IMG/VR virus record: IMGVR_UViG_2563366988_000007
Coordinates: 1 to 40,587 of that record
Strand: one strand, 5' to 3'
Source: a virus
Lineage: Duplodnaviria > Heunggongvirae > Uroviricota > Caudoviricetes
Length of the DNA: 40,587 nucleotides
Below the pieces are notes generated by a model. It saw nothing but the letters and a program-made list of their open reading frames with translations. It was not told where the DNA came from and did not search any database. The first letter of the stretch is position 1. Each line of letters opens with the position of its first letter. The translations under genes were made by a program, and so were the position numbers. This document shows, one piece after another, positions 3,088-40,587 of this stretch.

Positions 3088-3367
3088 ACTTTCTCCTGTT
3101 TACTATCTATAAGCCAGTCAATTATTGATGACTAAACCCGCATAGTAAACCATATATGAATCATTATTGTTCCATATCATATATCTCAATAAAAGTACTA
3201 ATGATTTTACAGAACGAGCCAGCAGAGTGGGGGCAGTTGTACAGGAACCATAGACTTAATTTTGTATTTAATAATGCTATGGTGTAATAAACCTGAACAT
3301 GTATTTAAAATACGTACTGATTCATGATAGAATTCAAAGATAACTTTTCACAAACTCCGTTTTTGAT

Positions 3368-3395
3368 ACCCGCAAAATATTGCGGGCTTTTTTTT
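3368..3395 (+). terminator. Intrinsic terminator oriented on + strand (stem cccgcaa/ttgcggg plus T8)
   Basis: acccgcaaaatattgcgggctttttttt; T-tract only on + side. Confidence 0.45.
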
Positions 3396-6300
3396 AACGT
3401 TCTTCCAGAGACTGAATCCGCTCTTTTATCTTATCCATTTCTCTGCGCTGCCATGCTGCCTCGATATAGAATAAGAGATCAGGTCTGACCCCCCATCTAG
3501 ATCCTGCTGGCGTTATTTCAACGCGCTCAATGATGTCTTCTATTACCATCACTGGATTATCATCCTCATCAACAATGATGCTCCCGTCATTATCAGTCAG
3601 CGGCATTTCCCTTTGGCCAGTAATGACGTCATCATATACTGCGGGATAATCGTCATAGCAAAGAAAGGCATAGCGGCATGTTGTGCTTTCTTCTTCCATG
3701 AGTCCGTGAGAAATAAGAACATCACGAAGTTGCTGCGCGATTACACCATGATGTATCCTCGCCCCTTCTTCCCCCTTTATAGCGACAGCGTTCAGCCATT
3801 TATAAGCGATATACCTGACGTCACCCCAGGCATCCAGCAATGCTTCGTCAGGAGAGACCGGCTCTGTCTTTAATGTTCCGTCACTGGTAACCACAGGATT
3901 GGAGCCAAGATAAACTGTCGAGAACCTGTTTCCCGGACCACCAAGAGCATTTACATTATCAAGATAAGGTTTAACATCTCCGTTCTCAAAAAGATGTTCG
4001 AGTGCGTTATATACCGCGCGACGTGGAGTACTGCTTCCGGAACCATGCAACGTTATCATTGCACCATCTGCTGAAGACGTTGTTTCACCGCCGCTAACGA
4101 TTAATCTCTGAGCGGTAACATCATCAGACGGTACTTTCTTCGCAATAATGGCGTAATTACCCTCAAGTTTGACTTCCGCGCGAACTTGTCCTGATGTACC
4201 TGCATGGACAGTCAGTGACTGGACGGCAACATCATCTGTGAAATCAACGGGTACAGGAACCGTCCTCACGCCTGACGTCGACATAAAAGTAGGAAGCGTT
4301 CTGTTAGGAGTGGCTCCGTAGACAAAATCCCTTGAAACAAATTCTTCCTGTTTAATTTTCACCCTGAAACAATACAAATCAGCCGGGTGACCATCGTGAA
4401 CATAAGGATATTTTCTGTTGTTATCCCCTATGCTCCATGGGTTTAGAAAGTCTTCCCCACCGAAAATGTAGTACAGCCAGTTGTCTTTGATACAAACTGA
4501 ACCAACACCAACCGCAGAGTTAACTATTCCGCCCTGATAAATCTGATCAGTAACATTAACCCACTCTACATTATCCAGACTCCACTCATTGACGTTAACT
4601 CTGGTCATAAATGTTCTTGGATAATTTCCTGCATAACGGTTATCAGGTTCTCCTCCTTCCCACTCACCAAATGCGCGCTCACTGCCAAAAATAATCAGCT
4701 CATCGCCAACTTTGGCAAAAGGAAGGTTTGAGTGATGAACATTATTTGGGAAGCGAAGAGAATTCCATGATGTACCTAAATCAGAGCTTCTGTGCAATGA
4801 ACTACCGGGTTGAGTACTTAATGTCCCCCTGGTCGTCAGATACAGAATGCCATCATAATATTTTACACATGGCTCAGATGCATTCGCCTCATATTCTACA
4901 GGTATGCGTCTGCGAACAAAGCTACCAGGAGAACCGAAAGCATCAGAGAAATAGAGTATCCCAAGCTCGCGTGGACCAATATCACCATTATGGTAGCCAA
5001 CAGCAAAACTGTTATCGCTAATCGTCGCAAAACTGTGAATCTCAGTAACAGGAGTGCTTCCGTCAACAAAAGAAGGAATAGTTCCAAGACTGGTTTTTCT
5101 CCATGGTGACGAGTGAAATGATGTACCAAAACTCCAGTATCTACCCTCGTTATTCTGATCCACATCCTGGGTATTTTGCGTCGTAACTGTAAAAGTATTT
5201 TTATCAATAACAGTAGTCACCGTCATATTCCCGGTAACACCTGTAACACCAGAGTTTGAGAAGTTGACAAAATCACCAGCAAATAATCCGTGATCAGTAA
5301 TGCGAATATAAGCGACTTGCTGATTTGCTGCTTTCGTTATACCACCATAAACGCGAAGGCTGCGACTCATTGGGCGATCCCACAACTCTGCAACCTGCAG
5401 TTTATTTCCGCTCACGGTCCGCGTCTCAATTACAGCAAAAAGGCGATTTCTGACAACCCCCATACTCATGCAGTGATAGTTAACTGTGGGATAGTTTTCA
5501 TGTAAATCTGTAAGCCATTCCGGCGTTGTCCAGGTCTTCCCGTCATCTCCTGAGCGAACCCATGCAACATGGAGGTTATTTACACCATGGCGGTCTCCAG
5601 CCATAAAAGGCGCATAGATGACATTGTCATATACAAACGTTTTATCCTGCGTCCAGGCGTTGTACCACGGTGTATCTGTAATTTTAAATAACTCTCCCTG
5701 GATAAAATCTTCAGAAGCATAAAAAAGAGGCTGGCCCGGTATTCTCTCAAATAAAAAACGAGCATTTTTAAATCGACTGACATCCGGAAGAGTTGATACT
5801 TTAAAAGTAAGCCCTAATCCGTCAATTTTATAACCTGGAGATGAGGCTTCAAGGCACGCGCTTATTGCAGTGGAATCGTCATTTATACCATCACCAACAG
5901 CTCCAAAATCTTTGGGGCTAATAGCATCACGCATTTTATCCTGGAACGTTCGGTACACAGCCCCAGAACCATACTGAATAAACCAACCAAAACCACCAAC
6001 AACCCCGGCGATTGCAGCATCGACATAATTACGCATTGAGCGATTATTTACAGCGTCCTGCTCAAATGATGGATCTGCAAGGTTAGAAATTTTGTTTTGC
6101 TTTGCATCGTAATATTTTGCAAGCAAAGATGGTTTCATCAATGCACGTCTGAACCACCCAAAACATTGCTGGATCAGCATCGTCAGGTAGTCAAAGGCAT
6201 CTTCATGCACTTCGGGGAAAAATTTTCCCTGATTGCGAAGGTCTGTCTCCTGCACTACATCAAGCACACGATCTATCGTAATTCGCCATCCAGTAGCAAG

Positions 6301-6708: not shown

Positions 6709-6966
6709 ATGCAGCAGTATCACTATCCACTGGAAGACGGATTTACCGAAAGGATTCACACGCCGGGAGGCGTCAGGTCACTGGTGGAGGGATCGCACTT
6801 GATGAAATTACTCCGGGATCTCGATAAGGATGGATTTAATGTCGATGGCCCACTTGCCGAACTGACTGCACTGATTAACTACGTCACCAGCTCACAGATG
6901 TCTATGCGGGATCTGCAAACACATCTCGACTATTGTGCCGAACAATTACGAAAACAAACCAGATAA
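6709..6966 (+). CDS. Small SOS-regulated protein, candidate antirepressor (Tum-like logic); paralogous to C-terminal domain of adjacent Bro-N protein
   Basis: GGAG SD 8 nt upstream of ATG; LexA box in promoter; shared motifs HTPGGV/HSPSGV, AEL, RDLQTH/RDIQTH with 7282-7977 C-terminus. Confidence 0.55.
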   Translation: MQQYHYPLEDGFTERIHTPGGVRSLVEGSHLMKLLRDLDKDGFNVDGPLAELTALINYVTSSQMSMRDLQTHLDYCAEQLRKQTR

Positions 6967-7104
6967 GGTTTGCAATTACCAAGTGGAGTGCTTATATTTA
7001 CCTTTGAGATAAATTTACATCGCACTCCTCTTGTGCCATAGTAATCGGGCACTGGCAAAATCCAGTGCCGGGATTGGCGTCCCGGATTACTAAAAGGCGC
7101 ATTC

Positions 7105-7124
7105 ACCGCGCAAGCGGTTTTTTT
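7105..7124 (+). terminator. Intrinsic terminator (accgc-gcaa-gcggt plus T7)
   Basis: caccgcgcaagcggttttttt. Confidence 0.5.
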
Positions 7125-7281
7125 ATGCGTATAGCACGGCCACATTCGTATTATGGTGGGCTGTGTGGGGGCACCGAAAGGTGCGCCGGGTCCTTTTAGC
7201 CGGTTACGCCAACCCTGCACAGTTCACCACCAACCGATTGGCGTCGGTAGTGGTGATTAACCAGACTAAAAGGTAACCACT

Positions 7282-25564: not shown

Positions 25565-25641
25565 GTGGCATTAGCTCAGTTGGACAGAGCAACCGCCTTC
25601 TAAGCGGTTGGTCGCAGGTTCGAATCCTGCATGCCACGCCA
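25565..25641 (+). tRNA. tRNA-Arg, anticodon UCU
   Basis: Cloverleaf folded by hand: acceptor GTGGCAT/ATGCCAC, D-arm GCTC/GAGC, anticodon stem ACCGC/GCGGT with loop CTTCTAA, T-arm GCAGG-TTCGAAT-CCTGC, discriminator G, encoded CCA. Confidence 0.85.
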
Positions 25642-28669: not shown

Positions 28670-28681
28670 GTGACATGTCAC
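28670..28681. repeat. 12-bp perfect palindrome GTGACATGTCAC (copy 3 of 3)
   Basis: Exact; immediately 5-prime of SD of 28448-28660 gene. Confidence 0.6.
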
Positions 28682-29019
28682 ACTATTAATTTCGTTTCAT
28701 GCCAGCCTTTAGTCACCCAGCATTGCGAGTCACCATTACACGGGCATGAATTAACGGGAACTCTCTCGCCGCACTTACCGCAAAGTTTTCTGCTGATCGA
28801 TTTTATACGCCCGCGCACACGTGCATCATCCTGGCGGATCAGCAGCGCGATGTACTCGGCCATTTCATAGGGATCGTGACCAGGGCGCCGGGCGGCGCAG
28901 TTCCGCGCCAGCATTTCCTGCTCCTGCTTATCCAGAACCAGTTCAATTTTGCGCTCACCGGCGGCGGACTGCCGAGCGCGCTGCGCGGCTTTGCGCTCTG
29001 CTGCTGATTTAGCCATCAA
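28678..29019 (-). CDS. Hypothetical protein with C-terminal Cys cluster (possible zinc-binding regulator)
   Basis: CGKCG...CPCNGDSQC motif; basic N-terminus. Confidence 0.4.
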   Translation of the reverse strand: MMAKSAAERKAAQRARQSAAGERKIELVLDKQEQEMLARNCAARRPGHDPYEMAEYIALLIRQDDARVRGRIKSISRKLCGKCGERVPVNSCPCNGDSQCWVTKGWHETKLIV

Positions 29020-29290
29020 TATTCACCTTTATAGCGAACACCTTTACCGGTTTATCGCCGAAGTGCGGATGTGTGATTGTCTTGATTTCATATCCGTCAT
29101 ACGGGACGTCAATTCTGCGGCTGGAATCGTCGCGCTTCGGATATCCCTTTGTGATAATCAGGCGGTCATACTCGCGGAACATAATTCGCTTATTCCAGTA
29201 GTCATTACACAGGCGATACTCTTCCGTTTTCTCTCCGCGAATCATGGCATCGAAGTATTCACCTTTAACGGCAAGTTGCAGGTTAGCCAC
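29009..29290 (-). CDS. Hypothetical protein, tentative ASCH/PUA-like fold
   Basis: 93-aa ORF; weak motif resemblance only. Confidence 0.4.
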   Translation of the reverse strand: MANLQLAVKGEYFDAMIRGEKTEEYRLCNDYWNKRIMFREYDRLIITKGYPKRDDSSRRIDVPYDGYEIKTITHPHFGDKPVKVFAIKVNIDG

Positions 29291-29570
29291 GACCTTCCTC
29301 CTTTGGCTTGTGAATTTGTATCGTCATGCCGCTTTGAGTGGTGACTACAACGACAGAACCAGGCTGAAGACTGTTAAGATTGAATGCTTCGTAAAACGAA
29401 GCCAAGGCCAGCGCTTTTTTATTCTTTCGGTTCCACCAACGCCATCCATTGCTACAGGCTACACTGACAATCCACTGTCCACTCCTGTAAGCCATATAAA
29501 ACCAGATGAGCAAAACCTGAATGAATGCTATCCAGTCAATAATCGTATATTTCGCGAAGGAGACCATCAA
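29283..29570 (-). CDS. Small membrane protein, unknown function
   Basis: Trp-rich hydrophobic N-terminal helix, 95 aa. Confidence 0.4.
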   Translation of the reverse strand: MMVSFAKYTIIDWIAFIQVLLIWFYMAYRSGQWIVSVACSNGWRWWNRKNKKALALASFYEAFNLNSLQPGSVVVVTTQSGMTIQIHKPKEEGRG

Positions 29571-30331
29571 TTAACCTCCTGCGGCGGTTCCGGTAGAGGC
29601 ATCCAGTACAAGGCGTTCCCTAACCACGATAAAGTGCCGTCGCTCAACTCCACGTATTCCCCTTGTACCTGTCCTGCCATATACTCGCCGTGCTTTGAAT
29701 AAATTAAAATCCAATCATCTTGAGCGGGCATTCGCTCACTACAGCTTATCCAACCATCCGGAGTTACCGGATAGTTGCCAGCCTGAACAGTAGGCATATC
29801 AGGACCTTTGCGAATCGCCCTGGCAAGATCGATTGGGTCGTCGTACAACCAGTCACCTGTTTGCGGATGATTGGCTTCTGCCAATTGTGCAGCCCACTCC
29901 AGGCCGTCTTTGTGTCCTTGCAGATAGTCCAGCGGTAACTCATCACTATTACTTACAGGTTCGGCCTGAAGCATGGCGGCGCGGCAGGCGTTCCAGCCTC
30001 TCACCTCTGCAATAGCGGCAACAGCATCGACCGCGTACATTTTAAGAGGGTTAGGCATTGGTTTTTCTTCAGGTACTACTGGCACTGGAGGGGCGGCATA
30101 AACAGGAATAACGTCCGGTTGCTCTTTATTGCTTTCATCCGTTAAAGCCCAGAATAATTTCCCGGCCGGATGTTTGAAAATATAAGCAACTGGTTCTGCT
30201 TCCAGTGATGCCAGCGCAATTTTGTATACTTCCAGATCCATTTGTGCAGTTACTAAATCAGGATAACGATCCATAACCGTTATATTGCGCTTAATCATCT
30301 CTATTAATTGTTCTTTAGTAAAAGTGGTCAT
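29567..30331 (-). CDS. Phage protein with C-terminal DUF551-like domain
   Basis: C-terminal GWISCSERMP...YWMPLPEPP motif. Confidence 0.45.
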   Translation of the reverse strand: MTTFTKEQLIEMIKRNITVMDRYPDLVTAQMDLEVYKIALASLEAEPVAYIFKHPAGKLFWALTDESNKEQPDVIPVYAAPPVPVVPEEKPMPNPLKMYAVDAVAAIAEVRGWNACRAAMLQAEPVSNSDELPLDYLQGHKDGLEWAAQLAEANHPQTGDWLYDDPIDLARAIRKGPDMPTVQAGNYPVTPDGWISCSERMPAQDDWILIYSKHGEYMAGQVQGEYVELSDGTLSWLGNALYWMPLPEPPQEVN

Positions 30332-30341
30332 TCGTTATGCC

Positions 30342-30539
30342 TCAATACACAAAATCTGTTTTAAATTCATGGTTACATTCTGGACAGCATGTTTCGTAAC
30401 CTTTTATTTCTTCACATGCCTGTTTTGCTCCAGAAAAATCCCAGAAATCTGGATCACAAAGCAGATCGAAATTGTGACCGCATTTTGGGCATTCGGTATC
30501 AAGTGACAGATTCCAGTAAGCAGTGGTGTTTTTATCCAT
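30342..30539 (-). CDS. Small zinc-ribbon protein
   Basis: CPKCGH...CCPECNH two CxxC pairs, 65 aa. Confidence 0.45.
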   Translation of the reverse strand: MDKNTTAYWNLSLDTECPKCGHNFDLLCDPDFWDFSGAKQACEEIKGYETCCPECNHEFKTDFVY

Positions 30540-30540
30540 A

Positions 30541-31038
30541 TCAGTCTCCTTTGATGCGAATGCCAGTGGTACTCATTCTCCTGATTTCCCAGAGCACACG
30601 AGGAACACCACCGTTTCCGACCGGATCGCGTTTACTCCGCAGGGCGACGCTTGATTCCGCCCAGCTTTTTCTTGGAGGAAGCTCTTTCACACGAACAAAA
30701 CCAGCTGCGCGAAGAGATGCTCCTGATTCATCTGCCTGGGTGTACGTAATACAACGTTGATAACCCATAGCCTTTGCTGCCCGCCAGACAGCACCATAAA
30801 GCGCGCTGTTAGCGTTGCGTTCTCCTGTGGTACATGTGCGATTTACTTCAAGCGTTAATCCATCGTCCAAATGTCGTGCAACAGGTCTACCGGCTGTCGC
30901 CACACCTATCAATTCTCCGGCATCATTTCTCAGACCAATGCTGAATTTATGCCCCACCGGGGGTTTATTGTGTCGGTGATGTCTGGATATAAACGCCTTC
31001 GCAACACGAAGAGTAACCGGTGAAATCTGCACTCTCAC
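30541..31038 (-). CDS. Conserved phage protein, unknown function (GTG start)
   Basis: 165-aa ORF; shares duplicated 3-prime end GIRIKGD with upstream neighbour. Confidence 0.45.
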   Translation of the reverse strand: MRVQISPVTLRVAKAFISRHHRHNKPPVGHKFSIGLRNDAGELIGVATAGRPVARHLDDGLTLEVNRTCTTGERNANSALYGAVWRAAKAMGYQRCITYTQADESGASLRAAGFVRVKELPPRKSWAESSVALRSKRDPVGNGGVPRVLWEIRRMSTTGIRIKGD

Positions 31039-31520
31039 TCTCCTTTGATGCGAATGCCTGTTGCAATGCTGTTTATGATGCTGTCAGTGCATGGGGTAGA
31101 AAGCTGGGCATCTCCAGCAATTTTCATGACCTCAACATCTGCATATCGAATACCGAGGTGTATCAGACCGGCTATGCCTGACTTAAGCCGAGCATTTTCC
31201 ATAAATAGAACTTTTGCCCGCTGTTTTTCTGCTTCAAGCTCAACGCGCAGCTTCCCTACCGTTAGCGCAATATCCTCGTTCTCCTGATCGCGGCTTTTGA
31301 TGTATTGCTGGTTCCTTTCCCGTTCATCCAGTAGTGCCAGCACGGTTTCTGGTCCGGCCAGAAATTTGAAGGCGTTGAGCGCATCAATATCCACACCGTA
31401 ATCTTTAAGTTCCTGTTCACTTAACAAATCATCATCAGCTGGCAACATTAACAGGCGTTCCATTGCTGGAATTGCACGTTCCGCCGCCTCACGCAGTGCC
31501 TGGTAATTAATTTCGCTCAC
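31035..31520 (-). CDS. Ead/Ea22-like protein
   Basis: N-terminus MSEINYQALREAAERA, acidic coiled-coil. Confidence 0.45.
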   Translation of the reverse strand: MSEINYQALREAAERAIPAMERLLMLPADDDLLSEQELKDYGVDIDALNAFKFLAGPETVLALLDERERNQQYIKSRDQENEDIALTVGKLRVELEAEKQRAKVLFMENARLKSGIAGLIHLGIRYADVEVMKIAGDAQLSTPCTDSIINSIATGIRIKGE

Positions 31521-32035
31521 TGGTTGCCTCCTTTGCGAAGCTGGGCAGCAAAGTCAACTAACCACTCAGTCATTTCAACCTTCCCTACCAGGTCTGAACC
31601 AGGGTGCATACAGCAATCACTCTGCGCCGCTTTGAAATCCTTATACTCATATTCTTGGGCCACCAGATTTTTTGCAGCTTCTATAGCAGCATCCACCCCC
31701 TGCGCCCGCACTTCAGACAGGAAAGCATCGGTGGCTGGCATATTTCCTGTTGCCTTCATTGCCTCCAAAATAACCAGAACGCCATCTCGCCCAATCTCCT
31801 CGCAGATAACCTCGGTGCTGTCGCCAACAACATCGCAAAATGCCTGAACTGCTTTACGAGCCAGCGCATTCTCCGCAGCCAGCGCATTAGCACGCACCAG
31901 TTGCACTTCCAGTTGCGTTGCCAAATAGCTGATCAGCTTTGCCACACTGCGCATATCAACGGCACCACATTCTGCTTTCAGTTCCGAAGCCATCTCATGC
32001 CCGGCGGCAACTAACCCTTTGATATTACTTTCCAT
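31517..32035 (-). CDS. Ead/Ea22-like protein
   Basis: Acidic helical protein in Ea22 position, overlapping start/stop. Confidence 0.4.
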   Translation of the reverse strand: MESNIKGLVAAGHEMASELKAECGAVDMRSVAKLISYLATQLEVQLVRANALAAENALARKAVQAFCDVVGDSTEVICEEIGRDGVLVILEAMKATGNMPATDAFLSEVRAQGVDAAIEAAKNLVAQEYEYKDFKAAQSDCCMHPGSDLVGKVEMTEWLVDFAAQLRKGGNQ

Positions 32036-32096
32036 CTTTACCCTCGCTTATCCACATAACTTATTGATTACATTGATAACTAAAAAGATCGTCGAT

Positions 32097-32444
32097 TCAG
32101 AACTCTTCGATGTTCCAGCCACCACCTGCTTTCTTTGGCTTAACCGTTACCCCGATGATTCGGAACGGATACTGATCTGCGGCGACTTTGGTTTTCACTC
32201 TGGCGTCATCGGTCCAGAATCCCCCTTTCACTTCGTGCAGTTCCATCTCGCCGGTGGCGAGCATCACAGCAAAATCTGGCGTATAGAACGTGTTGTCAGC
32301 TAACCGCAGCTTGATACCCTCAAATCGATACCAGACGATTTCTCCTGCACGTTTACGCAGCTCAAGGTGCTGGCAATACGCAGATTCTGTTTTGTTCATC
32401 TGGCCTGTTTTGAGTCGACCAAGAGCCTGCATCTGTTTTCTCAT
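32097..32444 (-). CDS. DUF1064-like phage protein
   Basis: 115-aa ORF, motif memory only. Confidence 0.4.
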   Translation of the reverse strand: MRKQMQALGRLKTGQMNKTESAYCQHLELRKRAGEIVWYRFEGIKLRLADNTFYTPDFAVMLATGEMELHEVKGGFWTDDARVKTKVAADQYPFRIIGVTVKPKKAGGGWNIEEF

Positions 32445-32447
32445 GAT

Positions 32448-32462
32448 TTACCCCTTAGGTAA
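32448..32462. promoter_or_regulatory. Operator-like palindrome TTACC-N5-GGTAA (ttaccccttaggtaa)
   Basis: Perfect inverted repeat 4 nt upstream of start codon of 32097-32444. Confidence 0.45.
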
Positions 32463-32509
32463 TTAAAAACCACATAAGACACGAAATCAATAGATTTTAG
32501 AATATTTTA

Positions 32510-32524
32510 TTACCTCTAAGGTAA
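32510..32524. promoter_or_regulatory. Operator-like palindrome TTACC-N5-GGTAA (ttacctctaaggtaa)
   Basis: Perfect inverted repeat downstream of P gene. Confidence 0.45.
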
Positions 32525-32561
32525 TTATCGAGACGTAAAAAAATGCGCTATCGCGCTGGTA

Positions 32562-33344: not shown

Positions 33345-34152
33345 CCCACACCTCATCTATCCAGTCAGTGTTATGCCAGTCAAGGCTCTTTCTGACTTCA
33401 CCTGATTTCTGTCTACAGAACTGGATGCGCCTTGCCAGCTTCTGCTCCCACTGTGCCTGATGGTATGCCTTACCCTCAGCCATCCAGTAAATTCTGAACT
33501 CTGCAAGTTCCTGTGCCGTTGGCAGACTGTCCAGGTAGATTCCCTGCAATGAGCTTTTCCGAAGAAAGTCATCTGATGGCTGCCATTGTTCATGCATGAC
33601 AAATTTGCCTAATTGCCCTGGCCCACCAGGAGGAACAAAGTTATTCATCACGGCGTTGTTTGCGCCGGGGTCATGAGGCACAGAATCCCCGGTTTTTGTC
33701 CTGCTCTCCCTCTCTTGGTTAAATGACTGGTTATATGACTGGTTCTGGATCCCGTTTTTGGGATCATTCAACATCCCGTTTTTGGGATCATTCAACATCC
33801 CGTTTTTGGGTATATTCCCGTTTTCGGTAACATTACCGTTTTCGGGTTCATTGCCCCCCTCCCGGTTGCCTTTAATGTTCCCGTTTTTGGTTATATTAAG
33901 AGAGAAAACCCGCACTCTTTTTGTCGCTCCCTTTCTCTCTCCGGTATCTGAAATAAGCCCCATTTTCATGAGCGATATAAGCCCGGCCTGCACGGTTTTT
34001 TTATTCAGGCAAGTGTCTTTAACGAGGCGTTCTATGCTGGGGTAGCAGAGGTTATATTCATCGGCTCTGTCAGCCATCGAGAGCAGTATGAGCTTTAATG
34101 ATGAGCTACCTGGATCTGTCTCCCAGGCCCAATCTGTTGCATGTCTGCTCAT
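33319..34152 (-). CDS. Replication initiator (O-like) with iteron origin inside coding sequence
   Basis: N-terminal winged-helix-like domain; Asn/Gly repeat linker encoded by iterons; overlaps P start. Confidence 0.65.
   Translation of the reverse strand: MSRHATDWAWETDPGSSSLKLILLSMADRADEYNLCYPSIERLVKDTCLNKKTVQAGLISLMKMGLISDTGERKGATKRVRVFSLNITKNGNIKGNREGGNEPENGNVTENGNIPKNGMLNDPKNGMLNDPKNGIQNQSYNQSFNQERESRTKTGDSVPHDPGANNAVMNNFVPPGGPGQLGKFVMHEQWQPSDDFLRKSSLQGIYLDSLPTAQELAEFRIYWMAEGKAYHQAQWEQKLARRIQFCRQKSGEVRKSLDWHNTDWIDEVWDEINSRTS
33749..33898. repeat. Iteron-type replication origin: six copies of core CCGTTTT(T/C)GG, two as exact 24-bp tandem repeat
   Basis: atcccgtttttgggatcattcaac x2 exact, then degenerate copies at 19-24 bp spacing. 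Confidence 0.65.
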
Positions 34153-34448: not shown

Positions 34449-34463
34449 TTACCTTTGAGGTAC
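34449..34463. promoter_or_regulatory. Operator-like palindrome, imperfect (ttacctttgaggtac)
   Basis: 4 of 5 match in right arm. Confidence 0.35.
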
Positions 34464-35796: not shown

Positions 35797-36096
35797 ATGA
35801 ACGTTAATCAGCAGAAAAATCTTCAAAAAATCATGCAGGCATTCGACAAGGACTACCACCTGTCAGAACAGCTATATGACCGACAAGTTGAACTGATTGA
35901 GAGCATCCGACTTCATCAACTGTCATCAACTTTCGACGTTGTAACAGGCAAAGGCGTTCGTCAGGAAGTACTGGAGGCTGCTAAAGACAGCCCTGAGTTC
36001 GAAGAACTGATGGATGCCTATCGGCGAGAGGCAATGGCAATTATCGCCCGCTGGGATCTGGCGGATCAGCTTGATGGACAGAAGGACGCGGCATGA
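35797..36096 (+). CDS. Hypothetical protein upstream of exonuclease (possible recombination accessory/nuclease inhibitor)
   Basis: Start at MNVNQQ with GGGAGGG SD; acidic helical 99 aa. Confidence 0.45.
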   Translation: MNVNQQKNLQKIMQAFDKDYHLSEQLYDRQVELIESIRLHQLSSTFDVVTGKGVRQEVLEAAKDSPEFEELMDAYRREAMAIIARWDLADQLDGQKDAA

Positions 36097-36914
36097 AACC
36101 GGGAATTTATTTCGGCATCAGCAACGAAGACTACCACGCAGGTGACGGCGTGAGTAAGTCGCAACTGGACATGGTTGCCAAGAATCCGGCGCTTCTTAAA
36201 TGGGTTCAGGCAGCACCAGAAGACGAAGAGAAAAAGTCTGCATTGGATATGGGAACCGCATTGCACTGCCTGCTTCTGGAACCTGGAGAATTCGACAAAC
36301 GCTTCATCGTGTCACCGAAATTCGATCGTCGGACAAAACAAGGTAAAGCTGACGAAGAAGCATTTCTTCGTGATGTGGCGGATATGGGTATTACGGTACT
36401 TGATGTCGAGCAGTGGCGAAAACTTGAGCTCATGCGTGATAGCGCAATGGCTCATCCGGCGGCACGCTGGATGTTGGAAGCACCTGGTTACTGCGAAGCA
36501 TCAATGTACTGGAACGATGAAGAGACGGGTGAGTTGTGCCGAATTCGTCCAGACAAATGGCTGAACGAGCACAACGTGATCGTCGACGTGAAAAAGGTTG
36601 CAGATATGGACCGTTTTGCACGCCACATCGAGGAATTCCGCTACCACGTGCAGGACGCAATGTACCGCGAAGGCGCAACGAGGGTTACTGGTCAACCGCA
36701 TGGTTTTTTCTTTCTTGCCGTGAGCGAAAGCATTGATTGTGGTCGGTATCCGGTACGCGTGTTCGAGTTGGATGCGCCGGATGTCGATGCCGGGCACGCT
36801 CTGTTCCGCCGGGATCTGAATACCTATCACGAATGCCGCATAAATGATGAATGGGGCGGCGTGGAAATTATTAAACGCCCTGACTGGGCACGTAAACAGG
36901 ATATGTATGTATGA
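36093..36914 (+). CDS. RecE-like 5-prime to 3-prime exonuclease (PD-(D/E)XK nuclease domain only)
   Basis: GIYFGISNEDYHAG and downstream D...E.K-type motifs resembling RecE C-terminal domain; paired with annealing protein. Confidence 0.6.
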   Translation: MKPGIYFGISNEDYHAGDGVSKSQLDMVAKNPALLKWVQAAPEDEEKKSALDMGTALHCLLLEPGEFDKRFIVSPKFDRRTKQGKADEEAFLRDVADMGITVLDVEQWRKLELMRDSAMAHPAARWMLEAPGYCEASMYWNDEETGELCRIRPDKWLNEHNVIVDVKKVADMDRFARHIEEFRYHVQDAMYREGATRVTGQPHGFFFLAVSESIDCGRYPVRVFELDAPDVDAGHALFRRDLNTYHECRINDEWGGVEIIKRPDWARKQDMYV

Positions 36915-37792
36915 GCAATGATATCGCAATCACATCACAACCAGGCGCAACTGTAGGCACTGCTGCGGCAATCTTCAGCCCCGAGGGCATGAATCAACTG
37001 GTGCGTTTCGCGGAGTTGATGTCACAAAGCAAAGCGACTGTACCGAAACATCTTGAAGGCAAACCTGCCGATTGCCTGGCGGTGACTATGCAGGCGGCAC
37101 AGTGGGGAATGAACCCTTTCGCCGTGGCGCAGAAAACGCATGTGGTAAACGGAACGTTAGGCTACGAAGCACAGTTGGTAAACGCGGTCGTATCCTCTTC
37201 CAGCCTGCTGGCGACACGCCTGAATTATCGCTGGAGCGGTGACTGGTCGAATGTTAACGGCAAAACAGATAAATCACCGAATCTGACGGTAACTGTGTCA
37301 GCAGTTCTTAAAGGTGAAACAGAACCCCGTGAGCTTACCATCAGTATGGCGCAAGCCGGAGTGCGTAACTCTCCATTGTGGGAACAGGATCCGCGCCAGC
37401 AGCTTGCCTATCTTTGCACGAAACGATGGGCTCGCCTGCACGCTCCTGATGTGCTTCTCGGTGTTTACACCCCTGACGAATTACAGGAAACGGCACCGCG
37501 CGTTGAGCGAGACATTACTCCGCAAACAACTACTGCTGCGGGAATGAACAGTCTGATCAACGCTAAACCAGTGAAAAAGCCTGATGAGCAAACTCGTAAA
37601 GCGGATAGCCGTGATCCAGAAGAAATGCTGATGGCCTTTACCAGCGCAGCGATGAATTACAGCACTGTCTCCGAACTGGATAAGGCTTACAAATACATTG
37701 CACAAAAACTTTCAGATGATGACGAACTGCTGGCAAAAGCCACCGACGTTTACAGCGTTCGTCGGGAAGAATTAAACGAAACATCTATGTAA
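36911..37792 (+). CDS. Single-strand annealing protein (RecT-like)
   Basis: Position after exonuclease; motif QWGMNPF...GTLGYEAQL resembles RecT family. Confidence 0.55.
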   Translation: MSNDIAITSQPGATVGTAAAIFSPEGMNQLVRFAELMSQSKATVPKHLEGKPADCLAVTMQAAQWGMNPFAVAQKTHVVNGTLGYEAQLVNAVVSSSSLLATRLNYRWSGDWSNVNGKTDKSPNLTVTVSAVLKGETEPRELTISMAQAGVRNSPLWEQDPRQQLAYLCTKRWARLHAPDVLLGVYTPDELQETAPRVERDITPQTTTAAGMNSLINAKPVKKPDEQTRKADSRDPEEMLMAFTSAAMNYSTVSELDKAYKYIAQKLSDDDELLAKATDVYSVRREELNETSM

Positions 37793-39336: not shown

Positions 39337-40587
39337 TTATTCCCCCGCCATCCACTTCTCAAACTTCGACGGGGAGAACGGAATCAGATCCGTATGCTCC
39401 CCGTCAATCCATGAATCAATCATATCGGCCCACTGCTGCAACATGTAGGCGCGCTGTCTGGCGTATTCCGCTTTGTTATATACGGCGCGCACACCTTTCT
39501 GCTCATGTGCCAGAGCCTTTTCAATCCAGTCTGAAGGATAACCAGCCTCATGCAACAACGTACTGGCTGTACGGCGCATATCGTGTACGGTGAAGCCCTG
39601 AATATGCTCACCATCTTCATTTATTATTTTCACCGTTCTGTCGATCAGAGAGTTCAGCGCGGCATTAGATAATGGCTTCCGGAAATTGTAACGACCAGGA
39701 ACCAGATATTCACTTCCACCAGCGCACATCTGCAACCCAACCAATATATCCTGTGCCTGTTTAGGCAGGTAAATAACGTGCGCCCGGCTTCCCTTCATGC
39801 GGTCTGAAGGAATTGTCCATGTCCATTTTTTAAAATCTATTTCATCCCACGTTGCATTGGTGAATTCGCCTTTACGAACCATAGTGATAAGCACCAGCTT
39901 TAAAGCCATTTTCATAGTGCCCATAGCACCAATGGCATCCAGCGTGCGGAAGAACAGGCCAATTTCTTCTGGTGTCAGTGTTCGCTCTCGTGGTTTAAAT
40001 ATGGCGATAGACGAAGGTTTAATGTCAGCCGCAGGATTAAACAAACCATGACCACGGTCATTGGCGTGACGGTATACGCTGCTGATGATCTCCCTAGCCT
40101 GTACTGCTGTTGCCCGACCACCGCGTTCGACAATCCGGTCACACAAATCACGAACCATCGATGTGGTAATTTCAGCCATCATTTTGTTACCAAGAACAGG
40201 AAGTATGTCACGGTCGATCACCGCCTGCTTCATTGCGCGGGTACTGTCAGCCAGGATGACGTGTTTCATATAACTGTCGGTATGTACCGCAAACGTCTCG
40301 GCACCACGAATCTTTTTGATACCGTCACGTTTAGCCGCAGCCGGTGACTGGCCTGCTTTAAGCAGCTTCTTTGCAGCAATCAGTTCTTCTCGCGCTTCTG
40401 CCAGGCTGATACCGTCACGCCCATACTGCCCGATTACCAGTGTTTCGCGGCGACCGTTGATACGGTAGTCATAGCGAAACGAGACCGTGCCTGACGTAAG
40501 CACAGCTACATACAGCCCGTCACGATCGGAGACCTTGTACAGTTTGTCCTGCGGCTTGAGGTTTTTTAATTTTGTATCGGTAAGCAC
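39337..40587 (-). CDS. int: Tyrosine integrase (P4-like arm-binding N-terminus); GTG start at window edge, N-terminus may extend beyond window
   Basis: N-term LTDTKLKNLKP; catalytic region HDMRRTASTLLHEAGY...LAHEQKGVRAVYN. Confidence 0.85.
   Translation of the reverse strand: MLTDTKLKNLKPQDKLYKVSDRDGLYVAVLTSGTVSFRYDYRINGRRETLVIGQYGRDGISLAEAREELIAAKKLLKAGQSPAAAKRDGIKKIRGAETFAVHTDSYMKHVILADSTRAMKQAVIDRDILPVLGNKMMAEITTSMVRDLCDRIVERGGRATAVQAREIISSVYRHANDRGHGLFNPAADIKPSSIAIFKPRERTLTPEEIGLFFRTLDAIGAMGTMKMALKLVLITMVRKGEFTNATWDEIDFKKWTWTIPSDRMKGSRAHVIYLPKQAQDILVGLQMCAGGSEYLVPGRYNFRKPLSNAALNSLIDRTVKIINEDGEHIQGFTVHDMRRTASTLLHEAGYPSDWIEKALAHEQKGVRAVYNKAEYARQRAYMLQQWADMIDSWIDGEHTDLIPFSPSKFEKWMAGE

Follow-up and report, generated by a model that had tools for sequence, protein, structure and literature searches.

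Two adjacent genes of a Caudoviricetes virus, an Ead/Ea22-like gene and a Mom-like gene, end in almost the same DNA sequence, and the proteins that they encode are unrelated except for the resulting C-terminal tail. What is this sequence, and why does it stand at the end of both genes? The genes lie in IMG/VR record IMGVR_UViG_2563366988_000007, of which positions 1 to 40,587 were analysed as one stretch of 40,587 nt (the window). Judged from sequence comparison, the 24-27-nt repeat, hereinafter designated the linker, represents two copies of a widespread boundary sequence in the accessory-gene regions of temperate enterobacterial phages. The linker is probably a portable junction for translation, and the same bases would give RecET/Red-type recombination a short stretch of homology to act on.

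The linker repeat in the window

On the + strand, the two copies read TCAGTCTCCTTTGATGCGAATGCC (30541-30564) and TCACTCTCCTTTGATGCGAATGCC (31035-31058). They are 24 nt long with a single mismatch, as the first-pass annotation of this DNA had reported, and a repeat finder lengthens the pair to 27 nt with two mismatches (30541-30567 and 31035-31061). The copies are 494 bp apart, their uninterrupted identity is 20 nt, and they are the only two matches to the linker with up to three mismatches in the whole window. On the coding (−) strand, either copy reads GGCATTCGCATCAAAGGAGA(G/C)TGA. Translation bears out the annotated common C-terminus, GIRIKG(D/E): the open reading frame at 31035-31520 (− strand) ends in …SIATGIRIKGE, and that at 30541-31038 (− strand) ends in …MSTTGIRIKGD. 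Specifically, copy 1 (31035-31061, − strand; ACAGGCATTCGCATCAAAGGAGAGTGA) contains the last codons (GIRIKGE) and the TGA of the Ead/Ea22-like gene, while copy 2 (30541-30567, − strand; ACTGGCATTCGCATCAAAGGAGACTGA) contains the last codons (GIRIKGD) and the TGA of the Mom-like gene.

The proposal that the repeat also supplies the AAAGGAG ribosome-binding site of the following gene holds for each copy, with GGAG 6-7 nt ahead of the start codon. In copy 2, GGAG (30549-30546) is 6 nt from the ATG at 30539 of a 65-residue Cys-rich gene. In copy 1, GGAG (31043-31040) is the Shine-Dalgarno sequence of the Mom-like gene and lies 1 nt from the GTG at 31038 and 7 nt from a second GTG at 31032. The annotated start of the Mom-like gene at 31038 is probably not the true one. 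Because relatives carry an ATG at the position of 31032, translation probably starts at the GTG there, and the real extent of the gene is most likely 30541-31032, encoding 163 residues. With this start, the Mom-like gene does not overlap the upstream stop codon (31037-31035).

The linker consensus is (CGCCGCT)GGCATTCGCATCAAAGGAGAGTGA(T/G)ATG. It comprises the last 7-10 codons of the upstream gene, TGA and the AAAGGAG Shine-Dalgarno sequence, which is followed after 6-7 nt by the next start.

The Ead/Ea22-like gene (31035-31520, − strand; 161 residues) matches Pfam PF13935 with E=1.5e-32 and 113.5 bits, above the curated family cut-off of 27. Its product has an N-terminal part and a coiled-coil in common with lambda Ea22 and HK620 HkaG, followed by a variable C-terminal part and the linker-encoded tail. 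The Mom-like gene (30541-31032, − strand) is the cassette between the two linker copies. Its product matches PHROG 1384 ('Mom-like'; phrog_1384, E=4e-42) and scores 22.7 bits against Pfam Mom, below the cut-off of 27.1. Close homologues of the Mom-like gene at 80 loci end in the same linker.

Reuse of the linker with different gene partners

We scanned IMG/VR for the exact 20-nt core of the linker, which was found in at least 120 contigs. All 123 core occurrences were read in coding-strand direction, and their flanks, 400 nt either way, were grouped by clustering. Among the matches listed, the flanks form 14 upstream and 20 downstream classes, which appear in 48 combinations in 116 occurrences. 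Also among the matches listed are 34 four-gamete quadruples, in which two upstream and two downstream classes are present in all four combinations, and which therefore require repeated exchange at the linker point. With one representative per class, conservation extends ~7 nt upstream (cgCCGCT) and ~8 nt downstream (GTGA[T/G]ATG) of the core and then falls to background. Partners that differ on both flanks have a median of 26 nt of uninterrupted identity (interquartile range 24-30).

The upstream partners belong mainly to the Ead/Ea22 family; these genes have the N-terminal and coiled-coil part in common, and their C-terminal domains, of at least 10 different kinds, are all ended by the linker. 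The remaining partners encode a DUF977 protein and a Mom-like protein. By this comparison, the linker belongs in the first place to ea22-type genes, as their conserved 3' end, and Mom-like and DUF977 genes carry it too. The most frequent downstream class has no stop at this point, and the peptide is internal there, the frame running on through GIRIKGEEHGNKTRG to a later stop.

Relatives of the window with alternative genes at the linker were found, including an empty-site relative and relatives that have only the cassette in common with the window. Contig L044 is 96% identical to window positions 31552-31035 (the Ead-like gene and its linker) and 96% identical to positions 30567-30309 (linker and Cys-rich gene). 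The two alignments occupy L044 positions 3353-3870 and 3844-4102, and their overlap is one 27-nt linker. L044 therefore has the order Ead gene, one linker, zinc-ribbon gene, which is an empty site, and the overlap means that the window equals L044 plus a 494-bp insertion consisting of the Mom-like gene and one linker. Equivalently, on the same alignments, L044 would be the product of a deletion between the two repeats. The reverse case is seen in L010, L109 and the P2-like phage PhiR44_2: only window positions 31056-30536 are common to them and the window, at 98-99% identity, and this block is the Mom-like gene bounded by linkers.

The P2-like phage deserves separate mention. The Mom-like cassette of PhiR44_2 (L122, PV340564.1 10191-10711) is 99% identical to that of the window, and has a partial linker upstream (…NIGIKGE before the stop) and a complete linker downstream. 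As read from this alignment, the PhiR44_2 cassette shows exchange across phage families.

The claim of the first-pass annotation that the linker marks module exchange is thus supported by the 14 × 20 flank classes in 48 combinations, with homology breaking within a few bases of the core. The linker is also the opposite of unique to this genome, being present in at least 120 contigs, in lambda and in HK620.

The same boundaries could have been left by illegitimate recombination of the type described by Hendrix, which may occur anywhere, with survival only of those products that keep an intact stop, Shine-Dalgarno sequence and start. The linker would then be a translation-initiation region that travels with downstream genes or is retained by the recipient; it would mark the boundary without being a substrate of the exchange. 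Several observations fit this explanation. The Shine-Dalgarno sequence, stop and start in the 3' half of the linker have a textbook arrangement; in diverged variants, bases change elsewhere but a purine-rich Shine-Dalgarno sequence with a stop next to it is always retained; and reviews state that most mosaic boundaries lack conserved sequences (PMC3029335). However, base-identical junctions in 48 flank combinations are not expected from repeated illegitimate events, and the quadruples need exchange at one and the same point over and over. Moreover, the 12-19 nt at the 5' side (GCCGCTGGCATTCGCATC) are identical even though a ribosome-binding site does not need them. We consider this explanation unlikely, but it is the strongest of the alternatives.

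The linker in known phages and bacterial genomes

Lambda ea22 has the linker as its 3' end (NC_001416 29844-29874) and ends in …HMMSDAGIRIKGE followed by the stop (…DAGIRIKGE). In HK620, an exact 27-mer lies at the hkaG/hkaF boundary, and the upstream protein ends in …RAAGIRIKGE. The 20-27-mer of window copy 1 is present unchanged in both lambda ea22 and HK620 hkaG. The 43-nt consensus was found in 396 phage records, including the Stx phages 933W, VT1-Sakai, VT2-Sakai and P27, as well as Salmonella phages and P1-like phages. Among complete E. coli genomes, 3097 of 5426 contain the 43-mer. It occurs at 6919 places in them, 445 of which are on plasmids, and a genome has 2 such places in the median and 12 at most.

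Two side observations concern lambda. The lambda sequence just past the ea22 linker (NC_001416 29655-29847; GTGAGATCGGTTTTGTAAAAGATAACGC…) is without an annotated gene and resembles a downstream class whose reading frame is 7 codons long (MSRNTGL). By its sequence, this stretch looks like what is left of a cassette that decayed between ea22 and ea8.5. Separately, 32 of the 45 matches to the linker in species-representative genomes are at least 99% identical to the lambda ea22 region. The lambda-like matches occur in assemblies of Streptococcus, Streptomyces, Bradyrhizobium, Pseudomonas (48.4-kb contigs) and others, and the 32 look like contamination of public assemblies with lambda control DNA. 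The genome collection is largely uninformative on taxonomic range for this reason.

Conservation of DNA or of peptide

The linker is translated, which raises the question of whether selection acts on the DNA or on the peptide. We scanned for any DNA that encodes GIRIKGE and TGA (3456 possible codings) and pooled the matches with the earlier loci. Of 122 GIRIKGE sites with the stop, 108 have the canonical codons, 14 are one synonymous base off, and none is more than one base off. The near-single coding indicates DNA identity by descent rather than convergence of the peptide, and convergence at the peptide level was rejected as the main cause because the degenerate scan returned almost only the canonical DNA. 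The codons for K-G-E are AAA-GGA-GAG, that is, the Shine-Dalgarno sequence read in frame.

We also sampled 80 Ea22-family genes chosen by their N-terminus; the exact 20-mer is present in 35 of them. All Ea22 proteins have been reported to have a basic residue and then Gly-Glu at their C-terminus ('+GE'), a feature of unknown significance (Dydecka et al. 2020, PMC7093339). On the sequence comparison, this ending is explained by translation of the Shine-Dalgarno sequence that serves the next gene.

It is nevertheless conceivable that (A)GIRIKGE is a selected protein tag or motif, serving in docking, oligomerisation or degradation, and that the DNA identity is secondary. The '+GE' on all Ea22 proteins speaks for a role of this kind, as does the retention of A-G-I/V-x-I/V, with some synonymous or conservative changes, at distant junctions. 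Essentially only one of the 3456 codings is in use, however, and K-G-E coincides exactly with the Shine-Dalgarno sequence. The tail is found on unrelated folds, namely the Ea22 C-terminal domains, Mom-like proteins and DUF977 proteins, but is missing from distant Mom-like homologues, which end in …EIRRGV or …EIRRMK. The loss of the stop in the largest downstream class places the peptide inside a protein, where it is no longer a tail. Finally, non-conservative changes in Ea22 variants (G to D, K to N) are about as frequent as synonymous ones, although the variant types of either sort are too few for a meaningful ratio. A functional peptide as the cause is therefore very unlikely.

Signals at the linkers

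An alternative of a different type is that the linkers delimit a site-specific or autonomous mobile cassette, moved by a dedicated enzyme as at integron attC sites or homing-endonuclease targets, or self-contained in its regulation like a moron or a T4 PeSL (promoter-early stem-loop) cassette. The array-of-cassettes logic does resemble that of integrons and of T4-type PeSL cassettes (PMC2839356). The signals expected at the linkers were not found. Attempts to identify inverted repeats involving the linkers gave none, and attC-like inverted repeats were rejected for this reason. A coding-strand scan of the linkers and the cassette interior detected no promoter-like site and no convincing terminator. 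The Mom-like cassette has the orientation of its neighbours, and its only terminator-like match is weak and intragenic. A cassette of the moron or PeSL type was rejected, neither promoter nor terminator being detected at the linkers. RNA folding of the linkers ±40 nt gave unremarkable z-scores of +1.5 and -0.9, and Rfam at gathering thresholds has no family at the linkers; an RNA element was rejected on these two grounds. No integron-type integrase or homing endonuclease is present among the open reading frames examined in 28678-32444, and the only integrase match is a phage integrase-family protein at 39337-40587. A mobile cassette of this type is highly improbable. Chance resemblance or a tandem duplication limited to this genome, which could appeal only to two copies lying 494 bp apart, has next to no probability and was refuted, since none of 100 dinucleotide-preserving shuffles gave any match to the 24-nt repeat, the two proteins share nothing beyond the tail, and hundreds of other phages carry the sequence.

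Proposed mechanism

We return to the reading of the linker as a translation junction and homology patch. Its first job would be that of a complete translation junction. Stop, Shine-Dalgarno sequence and start are all within the linker, and any gene joined there is therefore correctly terminated and the downstream gene re-initiated. Its second job would be that of a homology patch, because it is identical in many phages with unrelated flanking genes. Annealing recombinases (RecET in this phage, Red or Erf in others) or host RecA could swap, insert or delete single-gene cassettes at the linker and leave the reading frames unharmed.

In the window, a Mom-like gene with its own 3' linker would have recombined in behind a linker-ended Ead/Ea22-like gene, which would produce the direct repeat. 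Specifically, a single crossover in the linker (L) between X-L-Mom-L-Y and A-L-C would yield A-L-Mom-L-Y, and a second crossover at the other linker would restore C. Exchange between the two copies in one genome would delete the cassette.

The phage encodes candidate enzymes for short-homology recombination of its own, a RecE-like exonuclease (36093-36914, + strand; phrog_412, E=1.6e-125) and a RecT-like annealing protein (36911-37792, + strand; phrog_561, E=1.3e-145). The recE-/recT-like pair (36093-37792, + strand) sits between a repressor-like gene and a DNA methyltransferase gene. The minimal segment for efficient pairing is 23-27 bp for Red-beta, compared with 31-34 bp for RecA, and Rad52-like phage recombinases, RecT included, outperform RecA on short or diverged homologies (PMC3945230). 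For RecET, use of still shorter homologies has been described, at low frequency (PMC2327257). The median of 26 nt of shared identity falls within the Red-beta minimum and below the RecA minimum.

A similar exchange may act within the Ea22-family genes. Positions 31224-31343 (120 nt, − strand), a conserved coiled-coil segment in the Ead-like gene (…LLDERERNQQYIK.RDQENEDIALTVGKLRVELE), are an isolated block of homology with 92% identity to lambda ea22 and 89% identity to HK620 hkaG. The segment is common to most upstream classes. The variable Ea22 C-terminal domain lies between this segment and the 3' linker, an arrangement suggestive of two anchors for domain swapping, of which the coiled-coil segment would be the upstream homology anchor.

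Several points weigh against this mechanism. We infer crossovers within the linker from comparative patterns, and the same applies to the enzymes responsible and to selection of the linker for its role as opposed to its mere spread by that role. Survival of only those illegitimate products that preserve the junction could give the same pattern. The window's own copies share too little uninterrupted identity for efficient exchange with each other, 20 nt being shorter than the published pairing minimum. Only exact 20-mers were accepted in the first scan, which therefore gives no measure of linker variability. In the sample of 80 Ea22-family genes, most other tails are variants (GIRIKGGE, GIRINGGE, ADIRIKGE, NIGIKGE), and 12 of the 80 genes are without the linker, being DUF551 fusions with a DUF551 tail. 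The diverged junctions before distant Mom-like genes (AAGIKEESE, AAGIGVKGE, AGVNVEFE and AGIRINGEG, each before the stop) always retain a purine-rich Shine-Dalgarno sequence and an adjacent stop; in distant phages they also keep A-G-I/V-x-I/V with synonymous and conservative changes. The ribosome-binding site does not explain the A-G-I/V pattern, which leaves some room for a constraint on the peptide, or another constraint, on the 5' half.

The mechanism can be put in a stronger form, which we regard as possible but doubtful. In this form, the linker would be a maintained cassette-exchange site matched to its recombinase, its ~26 nt being tuned to the minimum of a Red-beta/RecT-type annealase. 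It would pool promoterless single-gene cassettes and Ea22 C-terminal domains of lambda-, P22-, epsilon15-, P1- and P2-like coliphages in an integron-like manner, with the '+GE' tails as a by-product.

Neighbouring genes and other features of the window

Over 76-80% of its length, the 25-kb segment at the beginning of the window is 96-98% identical to phiV10-type (epsilon15-like) coliphages. Upstream of the Ead-like gene are an adjoining hkaH-like gene (31517-32035, − strand; 172 residues, phrog_492), a DUF1064 gene, a P-like helicase loader gene and an O-like initiator gene. Downstream of linker copy 2 are the 65-residue Cys-rich (zinc-ribbon-like) gene (30342-30539, − strand), a DUF551 gene and terminase genes.

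A second conserved junction island is present at 31489-31552 (− strand), where the end of the hkaH-like gene overlaps the start of the Ead-like gene. The hkaH-like protein ends in …LRKGGNQ, and its stop overlaps the GTG start of the Ead-like gene; HK620 hkaH has a similar end, ADQLRKGGSQ. In L008, L043 and HK620, the island appears as isolated patches of 58-64 nt with 86-100% identity and non-homologous flanks. From this pattern, the island is probably another boundary sequence.

Short conserved islands are also associated with the DUF551 gene (…WMPLPEPPQEV), inside it and at its 3' end (29727-29780 and 29565-29607). They recur at many loci whose remaining sequence differs.

The O-like initiator gene contains an array of direct repeats of 18-24 nt at 33749-33898 (ATCCCGTTTTTGGGATCATTCAAC and variants), which by their arrangement are probably origin iterons. 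Palindromic TTACC-N5-GGTAA motifs are located at 32448-32465, 32510-32527 and 34449-34463, upstream of the DUF1064 gene and of the replication genes. They adjoin the sole promoter-like site of the − strand (32531-32504) and may be operator or regulator sites. Rfam matches in the window are an isrK Hfq-binding small RNA (7049-7124), a C4 antisense RNA (7149-7234) and a tRNA (25565-25638).

Discussion

The linker provides a clean and quantifiable case of a mechanism that was proposed between 1978 and 2001 and is usually called absent at most mosaic boundaries. One junction of 24-35 nt has dozens of gene partners, occurs in several phage types and is present in over half of complete E. coli genomes. 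It explains the GIRIKGE tail common to unrelated Ea22 variants, Mom-like proteins and DUF977 proteins, and it offers a testable substrate for measuring short-homology exchange by RecET/Red. There is also a warning for annotation: C-termini held in common in this way do not mean homology, and the start at 31038, chosen as that of the longest open reading frame, is probably wrong. What is new here is modest, namely the scale of reuse across lambda-, P22-, epsilon15-, P1- and P2-like phages, the match between the shared length and the pairing length of annealases, and the explanation of the Ea22 '+GE' tail. A literature search with GIRIKGE and the linker DNA string, which did not extend to Clark et al. 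2001 and Tong et al. 2020, returned no phage paper; the sole match to the DNA string was an unrelated exercise-physiology paper.

Among known systems, integrons are similar in that promoterless single genes in one orientation, separated by a recurring boundary sequence, are added, lost and reordered. The linker differs in that it is without an attC-like imperfect inverted repeat and no IntI was identified, and exchange would proceed by general or phage-encoded homologous recombination. In a moron, as defined by Hendrix, the inserted gene has a promoter and a terminator of its own at its sides; the Mom-like cassette, by contrast, shows no promoter-like site, and its terminator-like match is weak and lies within the gene.

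In T4-type phages, modules are shuffled by way of PeSL cassettes (Arbiol et al. 2010, PMC2839356). Like the linkers, PeSLs are short repeated elements that flank single accessory genes in a hyperplastic region, and they have been proposed to act as homologous linkers with expression signals for insertion, deletion and replacement. PeSLs carry a promoter and a terminator stem-loop, which isolate the cassettes transcriptionally, whereas the linker of the window carries translation signals only, plus part of the upstream coding sequence. By functional analogy, the PeSL is the closest counterpart of the linker outside lambdoid phages. The '+GE' motif of Ea22 proteins (PMC7093339) is the same feature at the protein level, K/R-G-E after unrelated C-terminal domains; the present comparison traces it back to a junction conserved in the DNA, and it is found on non-Ea22 proteins as well.

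The closest match is the boundary sequence of lambdoid phages. The boundary or linker idea goes back to the theory of modular evolution of Susskind and Botstein 1978 and Botstein 1980 and to the HK620 genome paper of Clark et al. 2001, as these proposals are recounted in later papers (PMC3029335, PMC2327257, PMC2839356). As in those boundary sequences, tens of bp are conserved at the DNA level between unrelated genes and join alternative modules, and the linker is present in HK620 (hkaG/hkaF) and lambda (ea22 3' end) themselves. It differs in that the phage of the window is phiV10/epsilon15-like, that the linker is located downstream of the replication genes and not in the lambda early-left operon, and that it is also found in P1-like and P2-like records. 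Nucleotide-level conservation between unrelated flanks, position at a gene boundary, the joining of alternative modules and presence in lambdoid phages were all observed. On every defining feature that sequence can address, the linker belongs to the kind described by Susskind and Botstein and by Clark et al.; it reveals not a new kind of system but a known one that is very common.

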